DNA of 64,000 bases from Novakomyces olei (taxonomy: Eukaryota), in the NCBI GenBank assembly GCA_016906335.1, contig JADEYG010000005.1:186001-250000 (forward strand), in the 5' to 3' direction. Shown one piece after another: positions 21,271 to 48,936 of the stretch. The notes under the pieces were generated by a model. That model searched no databases, was not told where the DNA came from, and was given only the letters and a program-made list of their open reading frames with translations. Both the position numbers and the translations under genes were made by a program. Position 1 is the stretch's first letter. Each line of letters opens with the position of its first letter.

Positions 21271-23769
21271 TTATGCGTCTATTAGGGCAGCTTCAAGCTC
21301 CTTACGACGTTGTAATAAGCCTTCTCGCCGTGCTAAAGTGCTTTCGAGCACTTGCAGCTCGTGTCGCACTTTACATTCATCGTGAACGGGCGAGTCGAGC
21401 ACATTCTCGTTCTTATTTCTTGCATTTTCGATACGCAACAGCTCCCACTCGTGGCCGCTGTCGCCTAAGCCCAATACGAGCTCCCATTGGTGAAACTTTC
21501 GCAGCGTTGGCCTATGCGATATCGTAATTAAAGCTGTTTGTAAATAGATGCAAGTGAAAACTCAACTATAATTAAGAATAAAAGAAAAAAAAAGTTGTTG
21601 AATATAAAATGAATAATCAAGAGATCCGAAAGAAAAAAGGATATTCGTTTGTTAAATGCCTTACTTATTCCCTGGTCTAGTGCCGCCTGGTACATAAAAG
21701 ATTCTACGTCGGCAGAAACGGCACTAGTAGCTTCATCCAAGACTGCAAAAGACGGAGAGAAATAAAACAAACGAGCCAACTGAGCTCGTTGCTTCTCTCC
21801 ACCAGAGAAGACATCTCGCCACTCCTTTCGAGCCTCCATTCCGCCTTCACGAGCGGGAAGATAGGCCAGTTTAACCGTTTCCAAACATTTGTTAACATCA
21901 TCATCACTTTTGCCCCACGCTACCATATTATTGTAGCGATGAGGGTATATAAATTGCTCTCTCAACGTCCCCTCTGACAAATAGGGCCTCTGTGGTAGGA
22001 ATAAGATTTCCCCATCTTGAGGCCTTGACACTAGGCCACGAAGAGTAGGCCATAGTCCTGCCAGTACACGAGCTATTGCCGTCTTGCCAACACCATTGGC
22101 ACCGGTAATGAGCAAGCTCTCTCCTCTTCTAACAGCAAGAGCAAGCTTATTACACAAGGTCTCGCCAGGGAGTAAGGGAGACGGGCCCGGTGCTATGATG
22201 GGAACATCTTCCATTCTTACTCCATCATAATTTAGTTGTAAAGTACCTTGAACATCGGCCAGAGACAGTTCGCTTCCTTTTTCACCATAATCTGAAAAAT
22301 ACACGCGATGAAGCTGCGTCATTAGTGCGTAGACCCTGGCAGTGTATCCAGCCAGCTCTGAGATATCCTTGTACGAATACATAAGGCGGCCTGACATTAG
22401 AACAGAGAACAAACAAAAAGTGAATGAATGAATGAATTAATAAATAAATGAATAAATGAATGAATAAATGAAAACAGATTAAAATAGTTTCTTCATATCT
22501 CTTACCTCCAGCGTCAGCTAGAGTCAGCATGAGACGCTTATTTGTTATGAAAGCCTGAGCATGATCACTCTCCGCCAAATGGTCATTTTGCGACACGATT
22601 AGGAGCGGCCCTGCACAAGACAAAAGCCCAATAGCACTCCAAGCATATTTAATGATATAGTCTTCCAGCATACCGTATCTCGCTCCAACTAGCAAGCTTT
22701 TATGAGTATGTTGAGCAAGAGCATTATATGCGTTCGCTAAAATGCCTCTTTCACGCTGAGAACCATTGTAAAAGGCGACCTCCTCCGAGTTTGTAATAAG
22801 CCGGGCATGAGCACTGCGAAACTTGCCTTCCAGACGAGCAGTAGCGGCGGCAAGTTTCCCAAAAGCGGGAGAGACTGTTCGCAACAAAAAAGCGGACAAA
22901 GCATAGTTGGAAAACAAAAAAGCCACAGACGGCCCTCCCAGAGAATGAACCAGCTGTCTCATAAAAATGATCATATCCACCATCGGCTTTCCAATATTCG
23001 CATAAATCCGGGCTGCGGCATCGCAAAATTTGCTTATATCAGCAGTAATATACTGGTCGATAGCTTCAATGCCGCTGTCGCCGCTGAGAGACTGTATCTT
23101 GTAAAAAGTCATGTGTTCGTTCAAATAAAGATCATGTGTGTAACGAACAAGTCGCGTGCGGAAAGCAATAGAAACTTTGCTTTGCAAATAGCGAATCATG
23201 GCATTTGTATAACTAGCCGGACCAGCCAGGGCAAACCAGTATAGTAGTCCCTTTACAAAGCTCAGCTTCCTAGCGGAGATAAGGTCGCGAACTAGAGCCC
23301 CATCTAGTCGAGCGACCAGCAGACTCAAATAGGTTCGAGCCACAAGAAAAAGCATTTGCAATAAAAGCAACCCAGACTCCCGGCTGCGTAATCTTGGACA
23401 CATAATCGTCCAGAGAGCCATAAACTGGCGAACAAAATTTGTATTCACGCCCGGTTTACTGCGAGTCGAGGCAGCAGAAGACTTGGCACCGGTACCCATA
23501 TCAAGGAAAAGCCTTTTATGTGCATCAAAAACGACACGTCTAGTGGGCCACACGACGACACGGCCTTCGGAATTTGAATTTGCGTCATTTGGTGGAACAA
23601 AAAGCTGCCTTGATCCATTTTGAAGACTTGCACTCCGCCTCTGCCTTGATTCTAAGGACTGCAGAAGCCTTCGATTCATTGTTAGCCGAACAACAAGAGA
23701 CAATATTAATGCAGCAATTGCAGCCGCAGCCGCAGCCTGCGGCCGTCTTAATTGCCGCCTCAACGTCAT
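21271..23769 (-). CDS. PXA1: Peroxisomal ABCD half-transporter (Pxa1-like), spliced
   Basis: FDAHKRLFL; EAA motif LITNSEEVAFYNG; Walker A GANGVGKT; signature FSGGEKQR; Walker B LDEATSAVS; introns ~22506-22392 and ~21665-21504. Confidence 0.88.
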
Positions 23770-28764: not shown

Positions 28765-29444
28765 GTTGGAATCGTGGGGGTTGTGTACGGTACTAATATT
28801 TATTTTATTTGGTAAATAATTTATTTATCTGTATACAATTTATCTAATTAATATATTTATTTTTATTTGCAAAAGCGGTCCTTATCGAGCCAGGACGGCA
28901 GAGATGAACAGTTTTGTATCAGCATTTCTCTGTTCTTCAAATTTTGTCTTTGCTTTGCCGCATTGCCATACTATCTTTTACTCGACTCTGCTTTAAAGAC
29001 GTACAATAAAATTTGTATAATGTTGTACAACTCTCTTTACTAGACAATCCCACATTTCAAAACCGCCGGAATATTTAAATACCAATTTCAAACTTGCAGT
29101 TGACAAATTTTCCGCCTTTACGACTTGAAATATTAATATCTCAATACTTTCTCGTTTTTGCAAGATCGATCTTGTAGGGAGAAATCTAGTTTGTTCCTAT
29201 CAATGTGGGATGCCCACTCAATATAAGACAGGCTGTATTTATTGCTATTCTCATAATTTTCCTATATCGTCATAGCGTGAATGTCAGTATGTGTAAAATC
29301 CCCCTTATTCGGTCTGAACCTGATACATAAGTAGCCGAAATAGCGCTTAAACATGCGGTGAATGCACTGTTTCACTAGTGAGTCTCAACACTTGCAGAAC
29401 AACCAAAACTGACAGAGTACATTGTGCAATTCGCAAAACTATAC

Positions 29445-29928
<484 letters not shown>

Positions 29929-30151
29929 CATCATCAATTATTATGATCAAATTATTATGATCTTTTTCAAAGGCATAACTTGTTTGTCCGGCGAATTATA
30001 TTAAGCTTATCATAAACGTCAGGCATTATGTAATCAACATAATCACGTGTAAGTATACGTATAATCTTTTATTTATTCGCCTATATTATTTACGAATGAA
30101 TAAATAACCCGACAGGAGCAAAATAAGGCTGTCGCAATCTGATCGAGAGTG

Positions 30152-41027: not shown

Positions 41028-42878
41028 TTATACAGCCATATCCATCTTGATAGTGGGATAAGGATCGTACCCCCGCAATTCAAAGTCCGCCATAGTATAA
41101 TCGTCAATCGAATCAATAGCGCGATTGATATGCAGAGTAGGAAACTCGCGCGGCTCGCGTTCCAGCTGTTTACGCAGCGCGTCCACGTGATTCATGTACA
41201 CGTGGCAATCGCCCATAAGAACGATCAAATCGCCCGGAGACCGCCCACACACGTGGGCGATCATACGCAGCAGTAATGCGTATGACGCAATATTAAAAGG
41301 AACGCCCAACCCCATATCACATGATCGCTGGAAGAGGAGACACGACACTTCGCCAGAGTGTGGGGAAACAGAAAACTGACAGAGCACGTGACACGGAGGC
41401 AGTGCCATTTTGTCAAGATCTACAGGGTTCCATGCGGACATTATAATCCGGCGATTGTACGGATCAGTCCGGATCAGTTCAATAACACGTGACAGCTGAT
41501 CGACGCCCTGCCCCGTGTAATCGGCATGGCAATCCCGATAAGCGGCGCCAAAATGACGCCACTGAAACCCGTAAACCGGGCCGAGATCTCCTTCCTCCCG
41601 ATGCACAAGGCCCACGCGATCAAGGAATTCTCGGCTTCCATTCCCGTCCCAGATATGCACGTTTCGGGCAGCCAAGTTCCGAGCGTCCGTGTCCCCACGC
41701 ACGAACCAGAGCAATTCTTCCGCCAGCCCACGGAAGAATACCCGTTTGGTTGTCAGCAGAGGGAACCGGTTCCCACGCAACGAAAACCTTAATTGCGGGG
41801 GCGCAAATAGCGCTATTGTTCCGGTACCGGTCCGATCGGGCCGAGCCTCTCCTTTCCTCAAGATAAGCGCGACAAGATCGAGGTACTGCGACTCTGCCGA
41901 ACGCGTCTGAGAGGGCAGTGCAATCGTGGATTCTCGTTCTTTTTCCCTGTGATTAGCAGAGTCAGGGGGTTCACTGCTTTGCTTTAGAGGCGTAGCAGAC
42001 GCCTCTAGAGCCTTTCCGGGACTCGTATAGTCGACAGTCGGAGTAGCAGACTTTTCGTCAATTTTTTCTCGTTCTTTTTCCCGTTCTTTTCCGTAAAGTT
42101 CCCCAGTCTTGGCCTCAAGTTTTGCCGCTTCAAGTTTTGCCGCTTCAACGTCCGTCTCTGTCGGCTTCCCCTGCCGGTGCAGCCCCAGCTTCTTCACCAC
42201 GTATCCCACGCAATCCGCCCACTCTGCCATTCCGCCCATGCCGATATCGCGGCAGGCCAGCACCTTTTCTATCGGGTAGATGGTCTCAAAGTAAGGCAGC
42301 ATCGACAGAGTGTCCAGATGCTGCCGTGTGATTGGATGAGACCACATTGCCGTGTTCATTGCCGGCGCGGCAAACAGAGGCCGGCCGGGTGCCCACGCAC
42401 GCACGACGCTGCCCAGCAGGTTGTCACACAGCCCATTTGCTGCGCGGGCTAGCATATCTGCCGAGAGCGGGGCGATAAGAAGCACGTGCGCCCACCTGCG
42501 CAGCTCGATATGCAGCACGGGATCCCCACGCCGACCCTCCCACATCTCCCACTCATCCTTATCGCGCCATACCCGCGTAGCACCGGCCTTTATCAGTTGC
42601 GCGGGATCCACAAAGTGGATCGCGTTCTCGGTCAAAACGACCTGCACCTCCACGCTGGCATAGCGCACGAGTTCCGCCACGATAAGCGGCAGTTTCACGC
42701 TGGCAACCGACCCGGTACCCGCCACGAGCACGTGAGTTTTGCCGTCTTTTACGGCCGCCGTTGACTGCTGCTGTAAGTGCTCGCGTCCAGTCGGCGCGTC
42801 GACTATACGCGCATGAAGACCGCGCGGGTTCACTTCGTGCGCGTACATTTTAGGCGATCCTTCTTCCGCGTGAGCCAT
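41028..42878 (-). CDS. hal3: Fusion of phosphopantothenoylcysteine decarboxylase (Hal3/Cab3) and thymidylate synthase
   Basis: Single intronless ORF. N-half: [47 protein letters not shown]-half: [57 protein letters not shown]-terminus IKMDMAV. Confidence 0.97.
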
Positions 42879-42894
42879 CACGAGTGAGTGTACG

Positions 42895-42909
42895 ACGCGT
42901 TAAACGCGA
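42895..42909. promoter_or_regulatory. Tandem MCB-like elements (ACGCGT, ACGCGA) upstream of the Hal3-TS fusion
   Basis: ACGCGT at 42895-42900 and ACGCGA at 42904-42909; MCB control of thymidylate synthase genes is established in yeasts. Confidence 0.55.
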
Positions 42910-43599
42910 CGCTATATACCTAATTTGCTCGCGCAGAATGGATTTAATGGTTGGTTGGCTATTTGATTTGTAAGGCAAACTATTACGCCTGTTATTGTAT
43001 GAGTAACAAAAGTGTTGCAAGTGACTATATATAACAGTACTTATATTATTTCTTTGAATCAAGTCTTTTTACATTGATAATTCTGTCTCCATTACTCGCT
43101 GAAATATCTAAATTCTATATTCTGTCTTTTGGATTTAGATTTAATTATTTGAATAGTATATATATGTATTTATTTATATATATATATATATATTCCTGAT
43201 CGCGTCTCTGCCTTGGAGACCTTTACCGTTCTTCACTACAGTCAGATAGTTTACATCTTTTATTCAAACTCCAAAATAACTTTAATTCGACAGAATTAAT
43301 TAGAGGTGTATTATATTACTAATGTACGACTAAACTAATTAGAGCTATTTATATATGAATAACGCTCAAAATTACTTATTTCTACGGATTTTCAAGAGTT
43401 TGAGAGATATCCGTTGTTTGACAATTATACTAAGAATTATTCGTCAATGTAACATTGACGTGCTATTATCGACGCATTGCATACAAGCAAGACTGTACGC
43501 AAGATTACATTTGAAATTAATGTAATGCAGATTGCGGTGCGTGAGTCAAGTAAATAACACTATTTTATTTCTTAACGTTTAGTATATATTTTTATATAT

Positions 43600-43945
43600 A
43601 AAATTATTTATTATTTATTATTTATTATTTATTATTTATTATTTATTATTTATTATTTAATATTTAATATTTAATATTTAATATTTAATATTTATTATTT
43701 ATTATTTATTATTTATTATTTATTATTTAATATTTAATATTTAATATTTATTATTTAATATTTATTATTTAATATTTAATATTTATTATTTAATATTTTT
43801 CATTTATTATTATTTAATATTTAATATTTATTATTTATTATTTAATATTTATTAATTATTAATTATTAATTATTATTTAATATTTAATATTTAATATTTA
43901 ATATTTAATATTTATTATTTATTATTTATTAATTATTTATTAATC
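43600..43945. repeat. AT-only heptamer satellite (TTTATTA / TTTAATA)n, ~345 bp
   Basis: Mixed array of two 7-mers, almost no G/C. Confidence 0.95.
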
Positions 43946-43956
43946 AACTATTACGG

Positions 43957-46900
43957 CTAATCATCCTGGGCAGGCACGTCATCGTGGAAATCGAGTCCGC
44001 GCCGAGTCGCTTTTATTACGCCAATGCGAATAACAAAATCGCCAAACTTTTCCCCATCGCCTCTCTCAGCCGCGTACCGCTGCAGCAGCGGCCGCAGGAT
44101 TTCAAGGATAGCGGCCTCGTCGACGCTGGCACGGTACAGTTTATTCAGCCGTTGGCCAAAGTGCCCTCCGCCCAAGTACATATCGTAAACGCCCATTGAT
44201 TTTCCAACAAAAGCAATCTCGGCAACATAAGGCCGAGCACAGCCGTTCGGGCAGCCCGTCATGCGCATGACGATATGGTCCCGGAGCAGTCCGAGCTCTG
44301 ACATGACAGTCTCCACTTTTTCCACAAGGTGGGGCAGGTACCTTTCGCTCTCTGCCATTGCCAGTCCGCAGGTTGGAAGTGCCACACAGGCAGAGGAGGA
44401 CATGCGAAGGCCAGAGTAGTTTACGTTGTCCAGACTGTACTTGTGCAGCAAAGCCTTGACTGCTTCCAATTGGCTGTCTGGCACATTTGATACGTACAGG
44501 TGCTGGTTGCCTGTCAGACGGAACTCGGCCTGGCCGCCTTGCTTGAGCAGCTGTGCCAGTTCTCGTAAGCCCTCTCTGTCACGTCCTTCTACCCTTCCAT
44601 TCTCTATAAACATGCCAAAATGATTGACCTTTCTAGACTTTTTCAAGTCAGACTTTTTCAAGTCAGACTTTTTCAAGTCAGACTTTTTCAAGTCAGACTT
44701 TTTCAAGTCAGACTTTTTCAAGTCAGACTCTTTCAAGTCAGACTCTTTTGAGCCAGAGTCAGAGCCAGCTCCGTCTGTTGTAAACCAGCCAAACCTGTCC
44801 ATATTGTCTGTCAAAGAGTAGGCTCGAGCAGGAGCAAACTGCCACCCCAGCCTGGCCTCTACTTGGGCACGGAACCAGTCGAGGCCGTACGAGTCGATAG
44901 TGTACTTGAGCCGAGCGTGTTTGCGATTGCCTCGGTCCCCGTGGTCCCTCTGCACAAGCATCACTTTTTCACACACGTCCACTACCTGCTCTGGCGTAAC
45001 AAACCCGAGCAGCTGGCCGAGGTTTGGGTACGTTTTCTTGTTGTTTCGTGTGGCTCCCATACCCCCACCAACAAACACATTAAAACCAGCCAGCTCGCTT
45101 TCTGTCTCGCTTTCAGTCTCGTTTTCAGTTTCAGTTTCAGTCTCAGTCTCTGTCTCTGTCTCTGTCTCTTTTTTCTGTCCTTTTTTCTGTTCTTTATTCT
45201 GTCCTTTTTTCAATCCTTTTTCCTTTTTCAATCCTTTTTCCTTTTTCAGTCCTTTTTCCTTTTTCAGTCCTTTTTCCTTTGTCTGTCCTTTTTCCTTTGT
45301 CTGTCCCTTTCCTGTCTTTGCAATCGCAATCAGCCCTACATCGTGGGCAAACACGTCCACATCGTTCATCGGTGGGATGGCAATGGATATTTTAAACTTG
45401 CGTGGGAGGTACGTGGGCCCGTAGAGCGGCTCAGCGTCGGGAACATGTACCCGCTCCACCGCTGAACCGGCAATCTGCTCCTTTGCACCAGTAATAGTAT
45501 CCGTCAGCCATATTTCGTGGTACGCGTGCGTCTGAGGCAGCAGCCGGTCAGAGATGCGGCAGGAAACGGCATAGACAGCAGTATGAAGAGCATCTGACGC
45601 AGGTACACTCGACACCATTACGTTCCTATTAACATCGCCACAGGCGCCAAGAGTAGTGAGCAGAGCTCTATTAATTGCCTGCATACTGGAGCGTAAATTG
45701 CGCTTTAAAATGCCGTGGAACTGAAAAGTCTGACGTGTTGTCAGTTTAAAAGTGCCGTTGCCAAACGCTTCACTAATTTCGTCCATCTGCAGCCACTGCT
45801 CGGGCGAGCAGACGCCAGCGGATAATCTGACCCGGATCATAAAGGCATAGGCCGGTTCCAGGCCCTGCAGCTTCCGCTCCTCTCGGATATCCCGATCGTC
45901 CTGCATATAAGTGCCATGGAACTTTGTCAGCTGCGTATCGCTCTCTGCAATTCTGCCAGTTGACCCGTCCGCCAGTCCCTCGGCAATTGTGCCTCGAAGG
46001 TAGTCTGACTCGATCTTTATATCCTCATTTGTCAGCGGCTTTGGCTCCTCTGTATCGGCCTCTAAGGCGACTCCGAGGGCTGTCCACAGCTGCGGCTCCC
46101 ACAGCGAATACTGCGTCTCGTACCCGTCCGGATCCTGATCGTCTCCGAGGCCGATTGGCACTAGTGCTTTGGCTCCAAGAGCCGAGAGCCGAGCGGCCAG
46201 TTCTTGGCCGGGCCGGTTGTAGTAGAGTTTGTCCTCCTTCCGTGGCCAATAATTGCTATCGCCAAGGCCAAACGTGGCCGTCTGCAGCCCACGCAAGTCG
46301 AGATCAGAGGCAGATTTAATACGCTCAAAGAACTCTCGAGCATTCTGAGGCGGTTCGCCTTGTCCGGCAGTGCAGACAATCGCTACAAGTAATTGCTCTG
46401 TCGGCAAATCCTCAAACACGTAATCGTCCATCGCCATTACCTGCGGCCTCAGCCCTCTCGCTGCCGCTCTCCGCCCGAGTCGGGCGGCAACAGATTCGGC
46501 ATTTCCGCCATCTGACCCGTACAGGATTGTGATTGGTGGGCCTGAAAGATTGCTTACCAGAGCAGCCAAAGCGCGTCTCGCGTTGCGTTTACGCGTCAGA
46601 CGCGCTTCGCTGCCAAAACTGTGGGATAGACTGGCAGCAAAAGTGGGATGCTTACTTGCCACCATGGTCAAGTAATTTTGTCGCTGCAAAAACTGCTGCA
46701 ATTCGAGGCGAACGCGTTCCGAGTCCAGCACGAAGCCGCCACCGTCCGCGTCACGTGTCGGGTCGAAGCGGTAGAGCGGCCAATACCCGGAATCGACCGC
46801 TTTTTTCGTCTCCTGCAGCACTGTGATTGGCGAATCGGCCTCGTTCGTCATCGGCAGATACGCCAGCACAACTGCCGGACCGGAAAATTTGTCAGCCTCT

Positions 46901-48936
46901 ACAACTGCCGAGATTACTTGGGAATAACTGCTGTAAACAGCAGTGCTGGCGACATAGGCGGTTTGCCAGTTCATTGCGTACAGACCAACGTCTTTTTTAC
47001 GGTCAGAAGCAGCAGAGCGAACGCGTTCGGTATAGGGTGTCGAGTCAATCACGAGCAATTTAAAGGGCAGATCTTGGGACAGGAGAGTGTGCAGCCCAGC
47101 GTTGCCCAAGTCATGAGCCCAAGCGTCTGACGTCACTATCCACTCTGACTGGACGGGCAGCAGTCTGCCGGCTTGTTCTGCCAAATTGCTTACATCTGCG
47201 TCAGAATCCTGGTCAGAATCCTGGTCAGGGGTCAATGAGGTGAGTATTTGCACTGCCTTGTCAGCGAGCCGGGCCGCCTCTGCCTTGTCGGCTCCGGTAC
47301 GGAGCGCCAGGTACTCTGTCAAAACTGCTGATTGCTCAGTAGAAAAAATGCCGCCTTGCTTGACCAAACGGGTTAGTTTGGCAATAAACTGCCGTCTTTC
47401 TGCGGCTAAAGCGACGAGTTTGCCGACAGCAAACTCGGGAGTTTGTGAGAATATTGAGTGGGGAGGGAGGGCAGTTTGTGACCCGTCTTTGCCCGAATTA
47501 GCAACGTGTAATCTGTCACCAAAAACGTTTTGCAGAATCCTGTAATACGCATCCTCAAGGGCCGGAGCTTTACGTACCGGAGCCTCATAATCTTGGGCCG
47601 CGTTAATGCCGAAAAGCAGCGACTGAATGGGCTCTTGAGCCCTCACGTTCTGGACAATACCCCTTAGCGCCTGCTTCACTGTATCGCTTGTAATCCTGCC
47701 CAAGTAACAGTCGACAAAGGTGACGCTGCCACTGCCCAATGGCGTTGCAGCATCGCTTACAACCAGGTCTAAAAGCACGGGGCCCCATCGGGTCACGGGT
47801 GTGCGTATCTGCTCCAGGACAGCCACGGACTGGACAGACACAGGGAGCGCCTGTGCCAATTGCTCTGCAGACCAGGGCCGGTAAACCCGTGGTTCAACAA
47901 GGGCCACGTTCTTTGCATCCACATTGCCAGCGGCAATTTCTCCAGCGATTAAACTGCCATAGCTGCCAAACAAAAGGAGGACAGCGTCTGGCCGAGTAGG
48001 GCCAGTGTAAGTGAAAAATTTATAGTTTCGTCCCGTAGATGAGCGGATAATGGCAAAGGCTTCTTCAATAAGGCGCACTGATTCGTTCTCTCCCTTCACT
48101 GACCCGTTTCCGGTCCCGTTTCCATTTGCTTTTCCATTCGCTTTTTCAGGCACAATGTCTTTTCCACCAGCCGGAGCGTCAGACGCTGACGCCCCATTGC
48201 CGTCTCCATTCACTTGCTCCTTGCCACTGGCTCCCACGCCATTCTGGTGCACTTGGCTCGACTGATTGAGAGCCTTTTCTGCTCCAATACAAGGTGCAAA
48301 ATAGACCGATCGGGGCCCATCCCTTGCATTATTATTGTTATTATTATTATTAATATTATTAATATTATTTTTATTGTCATCATCATCATTGCCGCTGGCA
48401 GTATTAATTAGATTGGCTCCAGGAGACAAGAGCTCGGCTTCCAGCGCCGGTTCATCGGCAACTGCCGGCTCTACCGAATTCTGAGTGGCAGTAAACACGT
48501 GCAGCACTCCACGGCCGGAGCGGGCAGAGACAGAATGGGCGACGAGTGCCATATCTTTGGCCTCTTGAAGGGATCGCGATATCAGAATGACGAAACCAGT
48601 CTCTCGCAGCTCCGCGACTGCTCCATAATCAGCGGGATCCTCTGCCAGTGCGAGATGAAGCACAAAAGGCAATTTTGCCAGTTGAAACAAGTGCGGAACA
48701 GCTGTATGAAGAGCGTTTCCGTTACATAAAACTGCCGTGCTCGACTCGGCACTCGCTTGCTCAAGGACACGTAGAAATGGATCAGCATTTGCTTTTATTT
48801 CCACCAAACTGCCGGCAGATTCTACTGCCGAAAACGTTGAGGGAGTCGCACTGAAAACGGTTGCCGCCGCACGCTCGGCAATAGAGGCAACAGCTTGTTC
48901 TCGGCGGTTGTGCCGTTGTGCCAAAGAGGCCACCAT
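43957..48936 (-). CDS. MET5: Sulfite reductase beta subunit (PFOR-like + flavodoxin + siroheme domains)
   Basis: KKDVGLYAMN; flavodoxin ILYGSDGGNAE, TAGQGEPPQNA; TKFHGTYMQDDRD; TTRQTFQFHG; ACGDVNRN; YLPRKFK; CVALPTC and TGCPNGC siroheme/4Fe-4S ligands. Confidence 0.97.
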   Translation of the reverse strand: MVASLAQRHNRREQAVASIAERAAATVFSATPSTFSAVESAGSLVEIKANADPFLRVLEQASAESSTAVLCNGNALHTAVPHLFQLAKLPFVLHLALAEDPADYGAVAELRETGFVILISRSLQEAKDMALVAHSVSARSGRGVLHVFTATQNSVEPAVADEPALEAELLSPGANLINTASGNDDDDNKNNINNINNNNNNNNARDGPRSVYFAPCIGAEKALNQSSQVHQNGVGASGKEQVNGDGNGASASDAPAGGKDIVPEKANGKANGNGTGNGSVKGENESVRLIEEAFAIIRSSTGRNYKFFTYTGPTRPDAVLLLFGSYGSLIAGEIAAGNVDAKNVALVEPRVYRPWSAEQLAQALPVSVQSVAVLEQIRTPVTRWGPVLLDLVVSDAATPLGSGSVTFVDCYLGRITSDTVKQALRGIVQNVRAQEPIQSLLFGINAAQDYEAPVRKAPALEDAYYRILQNVFGDRLHVANSGKDGSQTALPPHSIFSQTPEFAVGKLVALAAERRQFIAKLTRLVKQGGIFSTEQSAVLTEYLALRTGADKAEAARLADKAVQILTSLTPDQDSDQDSDADVSNLAEQAGRLLPVQSEWIVTSDAWAHDLGNAGLHTLLSQDLPFKLLVIDSTPYTERVRSAASDRKKDVGLYAMNWQTAYVASTAVYSSYSQVISAVVEADKFSGPAVVLAYLPMTNEADSPITVLQETKKAVDSGYWPLYRFDPTRDADGGGFVLDSERVRLELQQFLQRQNYLTMVASKHPTFAASLSHSFGSEARLTRKRNARRALAALVSNLSGPPITILYGSDGGNAESVAARLGRRAAARGLRPQVMAMDDYVFEDLPTEQLLVAIVCTAGQGEPPQNAREFFERIKSASDLDLRGLQTATFGLGDSNYWPRKEDKLYYNRPGQELAARLSALGAKALVPIGLGDDQDPDGYETQYSLWEPQLWTALGVALEADTEEPKPLTNEDIKIESDYLRGTIAEGLADGSTGRIAESDTQLTKFHGTYMQDDRDIREERKLQGLEPAYAFMIRVRLSAGVCSPEQWLQMDEISEAFGNGTFKLTTRQTFQFHGILKRNLRSSMQAINRALLTTLGACGDVNRNVMVSSVPASDALHTAVYAVSCRISDRLLPQTHAYHEIWLTDTITGAKEQIAGSAVERVHVPDAEPLYGPTYLPRKFKISIAIPPMNDVDVFAHDVGLIAIAKTGKGQTKEKGQTKEKGLKKEKGLKKEKGLKKEKGLKKGQNKEQKKGQKKETETETETETETETENETESETESELAGFNVFVGGGMGATRNNKKTYPNLGQLLGFVTPEQVVDVCEKVMLVQRDHGDRGNRKHARLKYTIDSYGLDWFRAQVEARLGWQFAPARAYSLTDNMDRFGWFTTDGAGSDSGSKESDLKESDLKKSDLKKSDLKKSDLKKSDLKKSDLKKSRKVNHFGMFIENGRVEGRDREGLRELAQLLKQGGQAEFRLTGNQHLYVSNVPDSQLEAVKALLHKYSLDNVNYSGLRMSSSACVALPTCGLAMAESERYLPHLVEKVETVMSELGLLRDHIVMRMTGCPNGCARPYVAEIAFVGKSMGVYDMYLGGGHFGQRLNKLYRASVDEAAILEILRPLLQRYAAERGDGEKFGDFVIRIGVIKATRRGLDFHDDVPAQDD

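Follow-up and report, generated by a model that had tools for sequence, protein, structure and literature searches.

A fused PPCDC-thymidylate synthase gene in a fungus outside the sampled Schizosaccharomyces crown

Is the joining of PPCDC to thymidylate synthase (TS) in one protein a peculiarity of the fission yeasts? The hal3 gene of Schizosaccharomyces pombe (SPAC15E1.04) is reportedly, from the work of Molero et al. in 2013, a PPCDC-TS fusion. A gene of the same architecture is present in the window, the stretch of 64,000 nucleotides of fungal DNA that was analyzed here. The initial annotation had given the fusion as described to be specific to the genus. A 2022 review mentions a TS domain only for the genus Schizosaccharomyces in the legend of its Figure 4 (PMC9604783). 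The locus raises the questions of which fungi carry the fusion, whether it arose once and what the fused protein may do.

A single frame for two enzymes

The window carries on its minus strand an ORF running from ATG to TAA without an internal stop (Table 1). Pfam matches to Flavoprotein (E 1.5e-28) and to Thymidylat_synt (E 1.8e-108) were found in its first and second part, respectively, confirming the earlier claim that PPCDC is joined to a complete TS in one ORF. The gene is called intronless on the basis of its open frame and of its co-linearity with four homologs, and no consensus splice donor of the tested patterns was found in the linker.

Table 1. Features of the fused gene and of its upstream region (positions in the window)
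Feature	Position	Strand	Basis or remark
Fused PPCDC-thymidylate synthase gene	41028..42878	-	one open frame, 616 aa (P0001)
N-terminal extension, residues 1-45, motif LHARI (21-25)	42744..42878	-	sequence
PPCDC (Hal3/Cab3-type flavoprotein) domain, residues 49-230	42189..42734	-	Pfam and catalytic residues
Linker, about residues 234-326	41901..42179	-	eroded PPCDC tail and Ser/Pro/Thr-rich stretch; no Met
Thymidylate synthase (ThyA-type) domain, residues 331-616	41031..41888	-	Pfam and conserved residues
MCB-type element: ACGCGT, 22 bases before the ATG, next to a further ACGCG core	42895..42908		putative function

Both PPCDC catalytic residues that had been read from the sequence are present. 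In alignments with AtHal3a and human PPCDC, His123 (VLHIELR) and Cys209 (LACRD) fall on the conserved His and Cys, the latter being replaced by Ser in the AtHal3a mutant entry 1mvl. Neither position varies among the PPCDCs that were aligned (63 of 63). The PXMNXXMW motif, which together with the His and the Cys makes up the catalytic residues of PPCDC (PMC9604783), is perfect (PAMNTAMW, 172-179). The equivalents of His90, PXMNXXMW and Cys175 are all found on one chain, as in the self-sufficient homotrimeric PPCDCs (AtHal3a 1e20/1mvl, human 1qzu, 6eoa), from which the window protein differs by the added C-terminal TS and a short N-terminal extension.

The TS half shows the complete ThyA fold and residues of stand-alone fungal TS (Pneumocystis carinii 1ci7/1f28; S. 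cerevisiae Cdc21), with the catalytic Cys, the Arg pair and the RSxD, Asn and HxY motifs. It keeps Arg476, Arg477, Cys496, Arg518, Ser519, Asp521, Asn529, His559 and Tyr561, all invariant in 44 of 44 aligned TS. AlphaFold2 run on a 5-sequence alignment gave a model (mean pLDDT 49, pTM 0.45) that was useless for the domain arrangement, and the TS half alone was used; it matched solved TS folds with Z of 24.6-26.5 and rmsd of 2.6-4.1 Å over 228-269 residues. The best solved-structure match of this half was the TS of P. carinii (458 bits versus 433 for the next). Unlike in the DHFR-TS of protists and plants, the N-terminal partner is an enzyme of the CoA pathway, and DHFR is encoded by a separate gene.

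Family searches of the window genome (G000), made exon by exon on an assembly that may be incomplete, matched PF02441 and PF00303 once each, both in the fused gene; with a single copy of each family, this gene has to provide the two essential activities. No Met is found between residues 217 and 480, so that the fusion would be the only source of a complete TS, barring initiation at a non-AUG codon or cleavage. One polypeptide would thus supply the only PPCDC and the only TS of the host. The PPCDC half would carry out the third coenzyme A step, by FMN-dependent oxidation (His123), decarboxylation and reduction (Cys209), and the TS half would convert dUMP to dTMP through Cys496, the two domains acting as independent catalytic units on a flexible tether. 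The fusion has been kept across lineages with only about 60% domain identity, although PPCDC and TS are not known to share a metabolite or substrate; what keeps it is a question raised by this locus. The biochemistry should resemble, by analogy, that of S. pombe Hal3, described as one polypeptide with PPCDC and TS activity (PMC4978486, PMC6695811), and the surprise to specialists should be moderate. A viable S. pombe strain is said to lack SPAC15E1.04 (PMC3815194). Such viability sits oddly with two essential activities and counts against our best explanation.

TS is an obligate dimer. PPCDC is a trimer whose active sites form between protomers (PMC9604783). As the active sites of both enzymes lie between subunits, an uncleaved protein would, by analogy with the separate enzymes, assemble at least six chains, an outcome to which we give even odds. 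With an intact chain and every domain engaged, the smallest closed assembly would have six chains, and open lattices are possible as well.

Distribution of the fusion and position of its host

Both domains were found in five of the 505 proteins examined, these being the query, P0002 and the clusters of S. japonicus, S. pombe and S. cryophilus. The 505 proteins comprised the query, the results of three homolog searches (best 120 of 7114, of 983 and of 2485 matches) and those of one search of cluster representatives (best 150 of 28387). The survey of Flavoprotein plus Thymidylat_synt architectures that had been proposed was thereby made and, among the proteins examined, returned only Schizosaccharomyces clusters, the query and P0002. 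The full-length homolog search scored 8000 candidates, among which a further fusion should outrank single-domain TS. Of the 150 matches listed when 50%-identity representatives were searched with the fusion alignment, none carried both domains; the S. pombe-type fusion was also missing, and because this positive control failed the search is uninformative on absence. No named PPCDC of Taphrina, Protomyces, Pneumocystis or Archaeorhizomyces appeared among the best-120 lists.

Unfused PPCDCs were found in Neolecta (262 aa) and Saitoella (434 aa), along with six further related proteins; all of these end in a short, mostly acidic tail as in Saccharomycotina. The Neolecta protein bears the source name 'putative thymidylate synthase', which seems to have been carried over, PF02441 being its one listed family. 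The TS chain of Pneumocystis (297 aa) is also stand-alone. Another arrangement was seen in the animal-like proteins P0007, P0008, P0010, P0013 and P0046 (533-552 aa), where a degenerate TS copy precedes an intact TS, as a tandem duplication.

Domain order and junction are common to the window protein, P0002 and the proteins of S. japonicus, S. pombe and S. cryophilus. P0002, encoded on a contig of 4712 bases, is 76% and 78% identical to the window protein in the two domains and shares its N-terminal stretch, a distance close to that between fission-yeast species. It constitutes independent evidence against the fusion being an assembly error and, judging from these identities, probably comes from a second species of the lineage beside the fission yeasts. 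No report of the fusion outside Schizosaccharomyces was found in the literature listings and passages covered. The wider range of the fusion, its second carrier P0002, the loss of the acidic linker and a possible MCB control are new.

Trees of each half were built, as had been suggested. For the PPCDC tree 44 of 242 rows were selected and for the TS tree 22 of 268, the latter including no named stand-alone Taphrinomycotina TS; this careful TS tree replaced a 47-row quick tree in which the outgroup did not hold together. In both trees the Schizosaccharomyces proteins formed a branch of their own (100/98 for PPCDC, 100/99 for TS) and the window protein and P0002 lay outside it. In the PPCDC tree the latter two paired at 100/99, inside an ascomycete group of unresolved branching that also holds Schizosaccharomyces, Neolecta and Saitoella. 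The five fusions were found on one side of a branch (70/0) present in 68% of bootstrap trees, and outside the branch uniting Saccharomycotina and Morchella (99/94). The free TS search separated the two fused groups, so that two changes were needed, and one clade was recovered in 24% of bootstrap trees; the tree in which the fusions were held together was 2.02 log units higher than the free tree, with a p-AU of 0.571. A single origin of the fusion is therefore allowed by both trees, though strongly supported by neither (70/0 for PPCDC; AU p=0.57 for TS).

In each domain the window protein is 56-61% identical to the Schizosaccharomyces proteins, versus 66-83% within the genus, and its TS is without the two TS insertions of Schizosaccharomyces. 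Neither the trees nor the identities place the host inside the branch that S. japonicus, S. pombe and S. cryophilus form. On the sequences compared, the host is outside the sampled Schizosaccharomyces crown, in both trees and at a greater distance than separates the members of the crown, which supports the view that it is no Schizosaccharomyces. From the two gene trees and parsimony we infer that its lineage is sister to Schizosaccharomyces.

DHFR, which is fused in S. pombe, is stand-alone in the host genome (L003:1405-2025). Cox11 is also stand-alone there (L004:1456-2205), and is fused as Rsm22-Cox11 in S. pombe (PMC8734313). As both genes stand alone, the other tandem fusions of S. pombe appear to be of later date than the PPCDC-TS one or to have been split here. 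Comparison of Spt4 with solved structures gave no usable placement. Novakomycetes are described as a class of budding yeasts sister to Schizosaccharomycetes (PMC7912804) and, from this described position, are the natural candidate lineage for the host. The main text of that paper contains no occurrence of hal3, thymidylate or fusion, and its supplements may hold ortholog tables.

The linker, Ppz and the origin of the fusion

The linker had been annotated as charged and about 90 aa long. It is indeed charged and 95 residues long (234-328), but nearly neutral in sum, with 19 D/E and 17 K/R (net -2), whereas the linkers of the other four fusions range from -12 to -23. It contains at most 7 D/E per 20 residues, compared to 11-16 in those four, and the PPCDC core is not followed by the short acidic stretch described for SpHal3, a feature that we do not count as defining this fusion type. 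By this comparison the acidic linker is lost in the window protein. P0002 has its acidic stretch at the same place as in the Schizosaccharomyces linkers. The linkers of the window protein and Schizosaccharomyces are only 13-20% identical and for this reason do not prove a common junction. The PPCDC tails of stand-alone relatives are usually acidic, and stand-alone fungal TS carry an N-terminal extension of 40-60 residues in which Ser, Pro and Thr are often abundant. A PPCDC tail and a TS extension joined together would resemble the fusion linkers, which suggests that the fusion may have arisen by an in-frame read-through type of event; the N-terminal extension of TS would then have been attached in frame to a PPCDC gene with an acidic tail.

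Compared to S. pombe hal3, the window gene has the same domain order, junction, catalytic residues and N-terminal LHAR motif, with 59% and 61% identity in the two domains. It differs by the charge of the linker (-23 in S. pombe), by the absence of the two TS insertions, by LHARI in place of LHARF and by a host outside the Schizosaccharomyces crown. The motif LH[AT][RKH][FI] was found in 20 of 242 PPCDC proteins, including all five fusions and Neolecta, and also in some Saccharomycotina. It was considered as a marker of Taphrinomycotina and rejected, as 8 of the 20 carriers fall outside the fused and Neolecta-like set. The stand-alone PPCDCs P0124, P0127, P0128 and P0238-P0240, which group loosely with Taphrinomycotina, carry the motif near the N-terminus and have acidic tails; basic residues precede the motif in several of them and its spacing in some resembles, speculatively, the BBxxxVTF Ppz-docking motif.

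Inhibition of Ppz is tied to a BBxxxV[TS]F motif and an acidic tail, and inhibition by SpHal3 is very poor (PMC9604783, section 5) or, as worded elsewhere, limited (PMC6695811). The window protein belongs to the same flavoprotein family as Hal3, Vhs3 and Cab3 of Saccharomycotina, and a Ppz-type phosphatase gene is present in the host genome (L035, the type being assigned from its layout). Unlike these proteins, it comes from a single gene with both catalytic halves and has no BBxxxVTF-type docking motif; both the N-terminal BBxxxV[TS]F and the acidic tail at the C-terminus of Ppz-inhibiting Hal3/Cab3 are absent. Ppz inhibition by the window protein is, on these motifs, probably absent, and the Ppz-type phosphatase of the host is unlikely to be regulated by it. 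With its neutral linker, the window protein offers a natural control for what the acidic tail contributes to Ppz inhibition.

Combined, these results lead us to infer that the window gene encodes an active enzyme pair from one transcript, that it stems from a single fusion and that its host has a sister-group position. We give a probability of about 80% to the joint reading in which the gene is orthologous to S. pombe hal3, derives from one fusion in the ancestor that Schizosaccharomyces shared with a sister lineage and encodes two independently acting enzymes. The fusion would have arisen once, in an ancestor common to Schizosaccharomyces and to the lineage of the host and of P0002. As it is present in a fungus outside the fission yeasts, it probably predates them and marks their kinship with a sister lineage. 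This would move an oddity of S. pombe back before the fission-yeast radiation, and provide a sequence character for spotting relatives of fission yeasts in metagenomes. An older fusion, a synapomorphy with a sister lineage and independent evolution had all been proposed; the synapomorphy fits best, and independent origin is allowed by the trees.

An independent origin would mean that the lineage of the host and P0002 fused PPCDC to TS separately, perhaps from neighbouring ancestral genes. The failure of free TS trees to join the two fused groups, the SH-aLRT of 0 for the PPCDC grouping and the poor alignment of the linkers all favor such an event. We nevertheless consider it improbable, because the same domains would have been joined twice in the same order within one small early-ascomycete group, one that accounts for all 5 fusions in the 505 proteins examined, because neither tree rejects one origin and because the acidic stretch of P0002 is placed as in the Schizosaccharomyces linkers. 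Somewhat less probable still is a fusion that was already present in an ancestor common to several Taphrinomycotina classes and later came apart in Neolecta, Saitoella, Pneumocystis and others. The PPCDC tree, unresolved at the base of its ascomycete part, leaves room for it, and the stand-alone P0124, the nearest unfused row, has an LHAKI similar to the LHARI of the window lineage; yet several independent fissions would be needed, and the acidic tails ending the PPCDCs of Neolecta, Saitoella and their six relatives are a Saccharomycotina-like state.

We attach the same small probability as to this older fusion to the host being a deep-branching, undescribed Schizosaccharomyces, in which case the fusion would still be confined to the genus. 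Among the matches listed, the best named full-length homologs are those of Schizosaccharomyces, and two domain trees cannot give the limits of a genus. Against this, the window protein is farther from the three species than they are from each other and branches outside them in both trees. DHFR, which is fused in S. pombe, is a separate gene in the host. So is Cox11, in contrast to the Rsm22-Cox11 fusion of S. pombe (PMC8734313). The least probable alternative, which we regard as very remote, concerns the protein itself: TS would be released through an additional transcript, through initiation at a non-AUG codon or through cutting of the linker, and no higher-order assembly would form. The length of the linker, its low model confidence and its poor conservation are in keeping with this, and the lack of an available Met before the TS core argues against it.

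Possible G1/S control and neighbouring sequence

ACGCGT is the MCB sequence, and CDC21 and RNR1 are MBF targets in S. cerevisiae (PMC5448814). As in the MBF target CDC21, an MCB-type element is found in the promoter of the fusion gene, and CGCG cores are present at -30 and -55. The element lies between a TATA-like box (TATATA, 42913-42918) and the ATG, a position that counts against MBF control. The chance of one ACGCGT in 50 bases is 1.5%, for an element noticed post hoc. Among 74 ORFs of the host genome (ATG-started, at least 150 codons, from 238,400 bases, some of the ATGs probably lying in internal exons), ACGCGT occurred within 50 bases before the ATG in 2 and within 300 bases in 6, fusion included. 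The start of the RNR large subunit (L037, G000:C15) is preceded by four ACGCGT in 400 bases, one of them at -25 in a similar context, and that of PCNA (L057, G000:C4) by two, with 0.12 expected in either case; no ACGCGT was found in 400 bases of the DHFR promoter. An MBF-type KilA-N protein with ankyrin-like repeats is also encoded in the genome. In the literature searched, S. pombe hal3 was not found as an MBF target. Transcription of the fusion gene at G1/S through MBF is, from these promoter sequences, about as probable as its absence.

A broader picture would combine a fusion, as a rare genomic change, that unites the fission yeasts and a sister lineage comprising two or more species, an MCB-driven wave at G1/S in which the only PPCDC is made together with TS, a six-chain cage or open lattice linking CoA and dTMP synthesis and the loss of a Ppz-regulating acidic tail; taken as a whole, it is doubtful.

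Also against MBF control, ACGCGT is not enriched in the window (14 versus 11.7 expected) and is equally frequent in coding and other DNA (0.30 per kb). A genome-wide excess of tandem ACGCG (468 versus 115) was rejected as evidence, as the reversed control differs in CpG content. Of 16 distinct tandem sites, obtained from 30 loci, all on C1, after overlaps were dropped, 12 lie in open frames of at least 90 codons and 10 of these in frames of at least 195. The window contains six tandem matches, three of which overlap inside the sulfite reductase gene and one of which is inside the fusion. The ATG of PCNA is directly preceded by a 3' splice-site-like sequence, which suggests an intron in the 5' UTR. 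A KilA-N/APSES protein without ankyrin-like repeats (L058:907-3165) resembles the StuA/Sok2 type, to which we take it to belong; to our knowledge, S. pombe has no StuA/Sok2-type protein.

The Pxa1-like transporter noticed in the initial annotation was recovered as an intron-split ABCD/Pxa-type peroxisomal transporter gene (ABC_membrane_2 and ABC_tran) at window positions 21528-23769, and we know of no Pxa1 in Schizosaccharomyces. Positions 1-5497 hold the end of one rDNA unit (part of the SSU, 5.8S and LSU), with a 5S gene 450 bases downstream of the LSU on the opposite strand. The 5S described as rDNA-linked is thus present beside the one rDNA unit that is visible, as a possible member of the repeat. 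Fission yeasts have many scattered 5S genes (bioRxiv 10.1101/2022.12.06.519325), and the 5S beside the LSU was set aside as a weak argument on the host, since one adjacent copy cannot tell linked from scattered genes. Single-copy-looking genes follow directly after the rDNA and 5S, including a MAP kinase kinase-like gene (5790-7036). The sulfite reductase beta subunit is encoded at 43957-48936 in one frame of 1659 aa with several low-complexity inserts of 5-6-residue repeats; this frame stops about 1.1 kb upstream of where the fusion gene starts, on the same strand. Long AT-rich simple repeats of the ATT type are found between genes (window 14169-14507, 29347-29934 and 43580-43950) and give spurious poly-Ile, poly-Leu and poly-Tyr frames.
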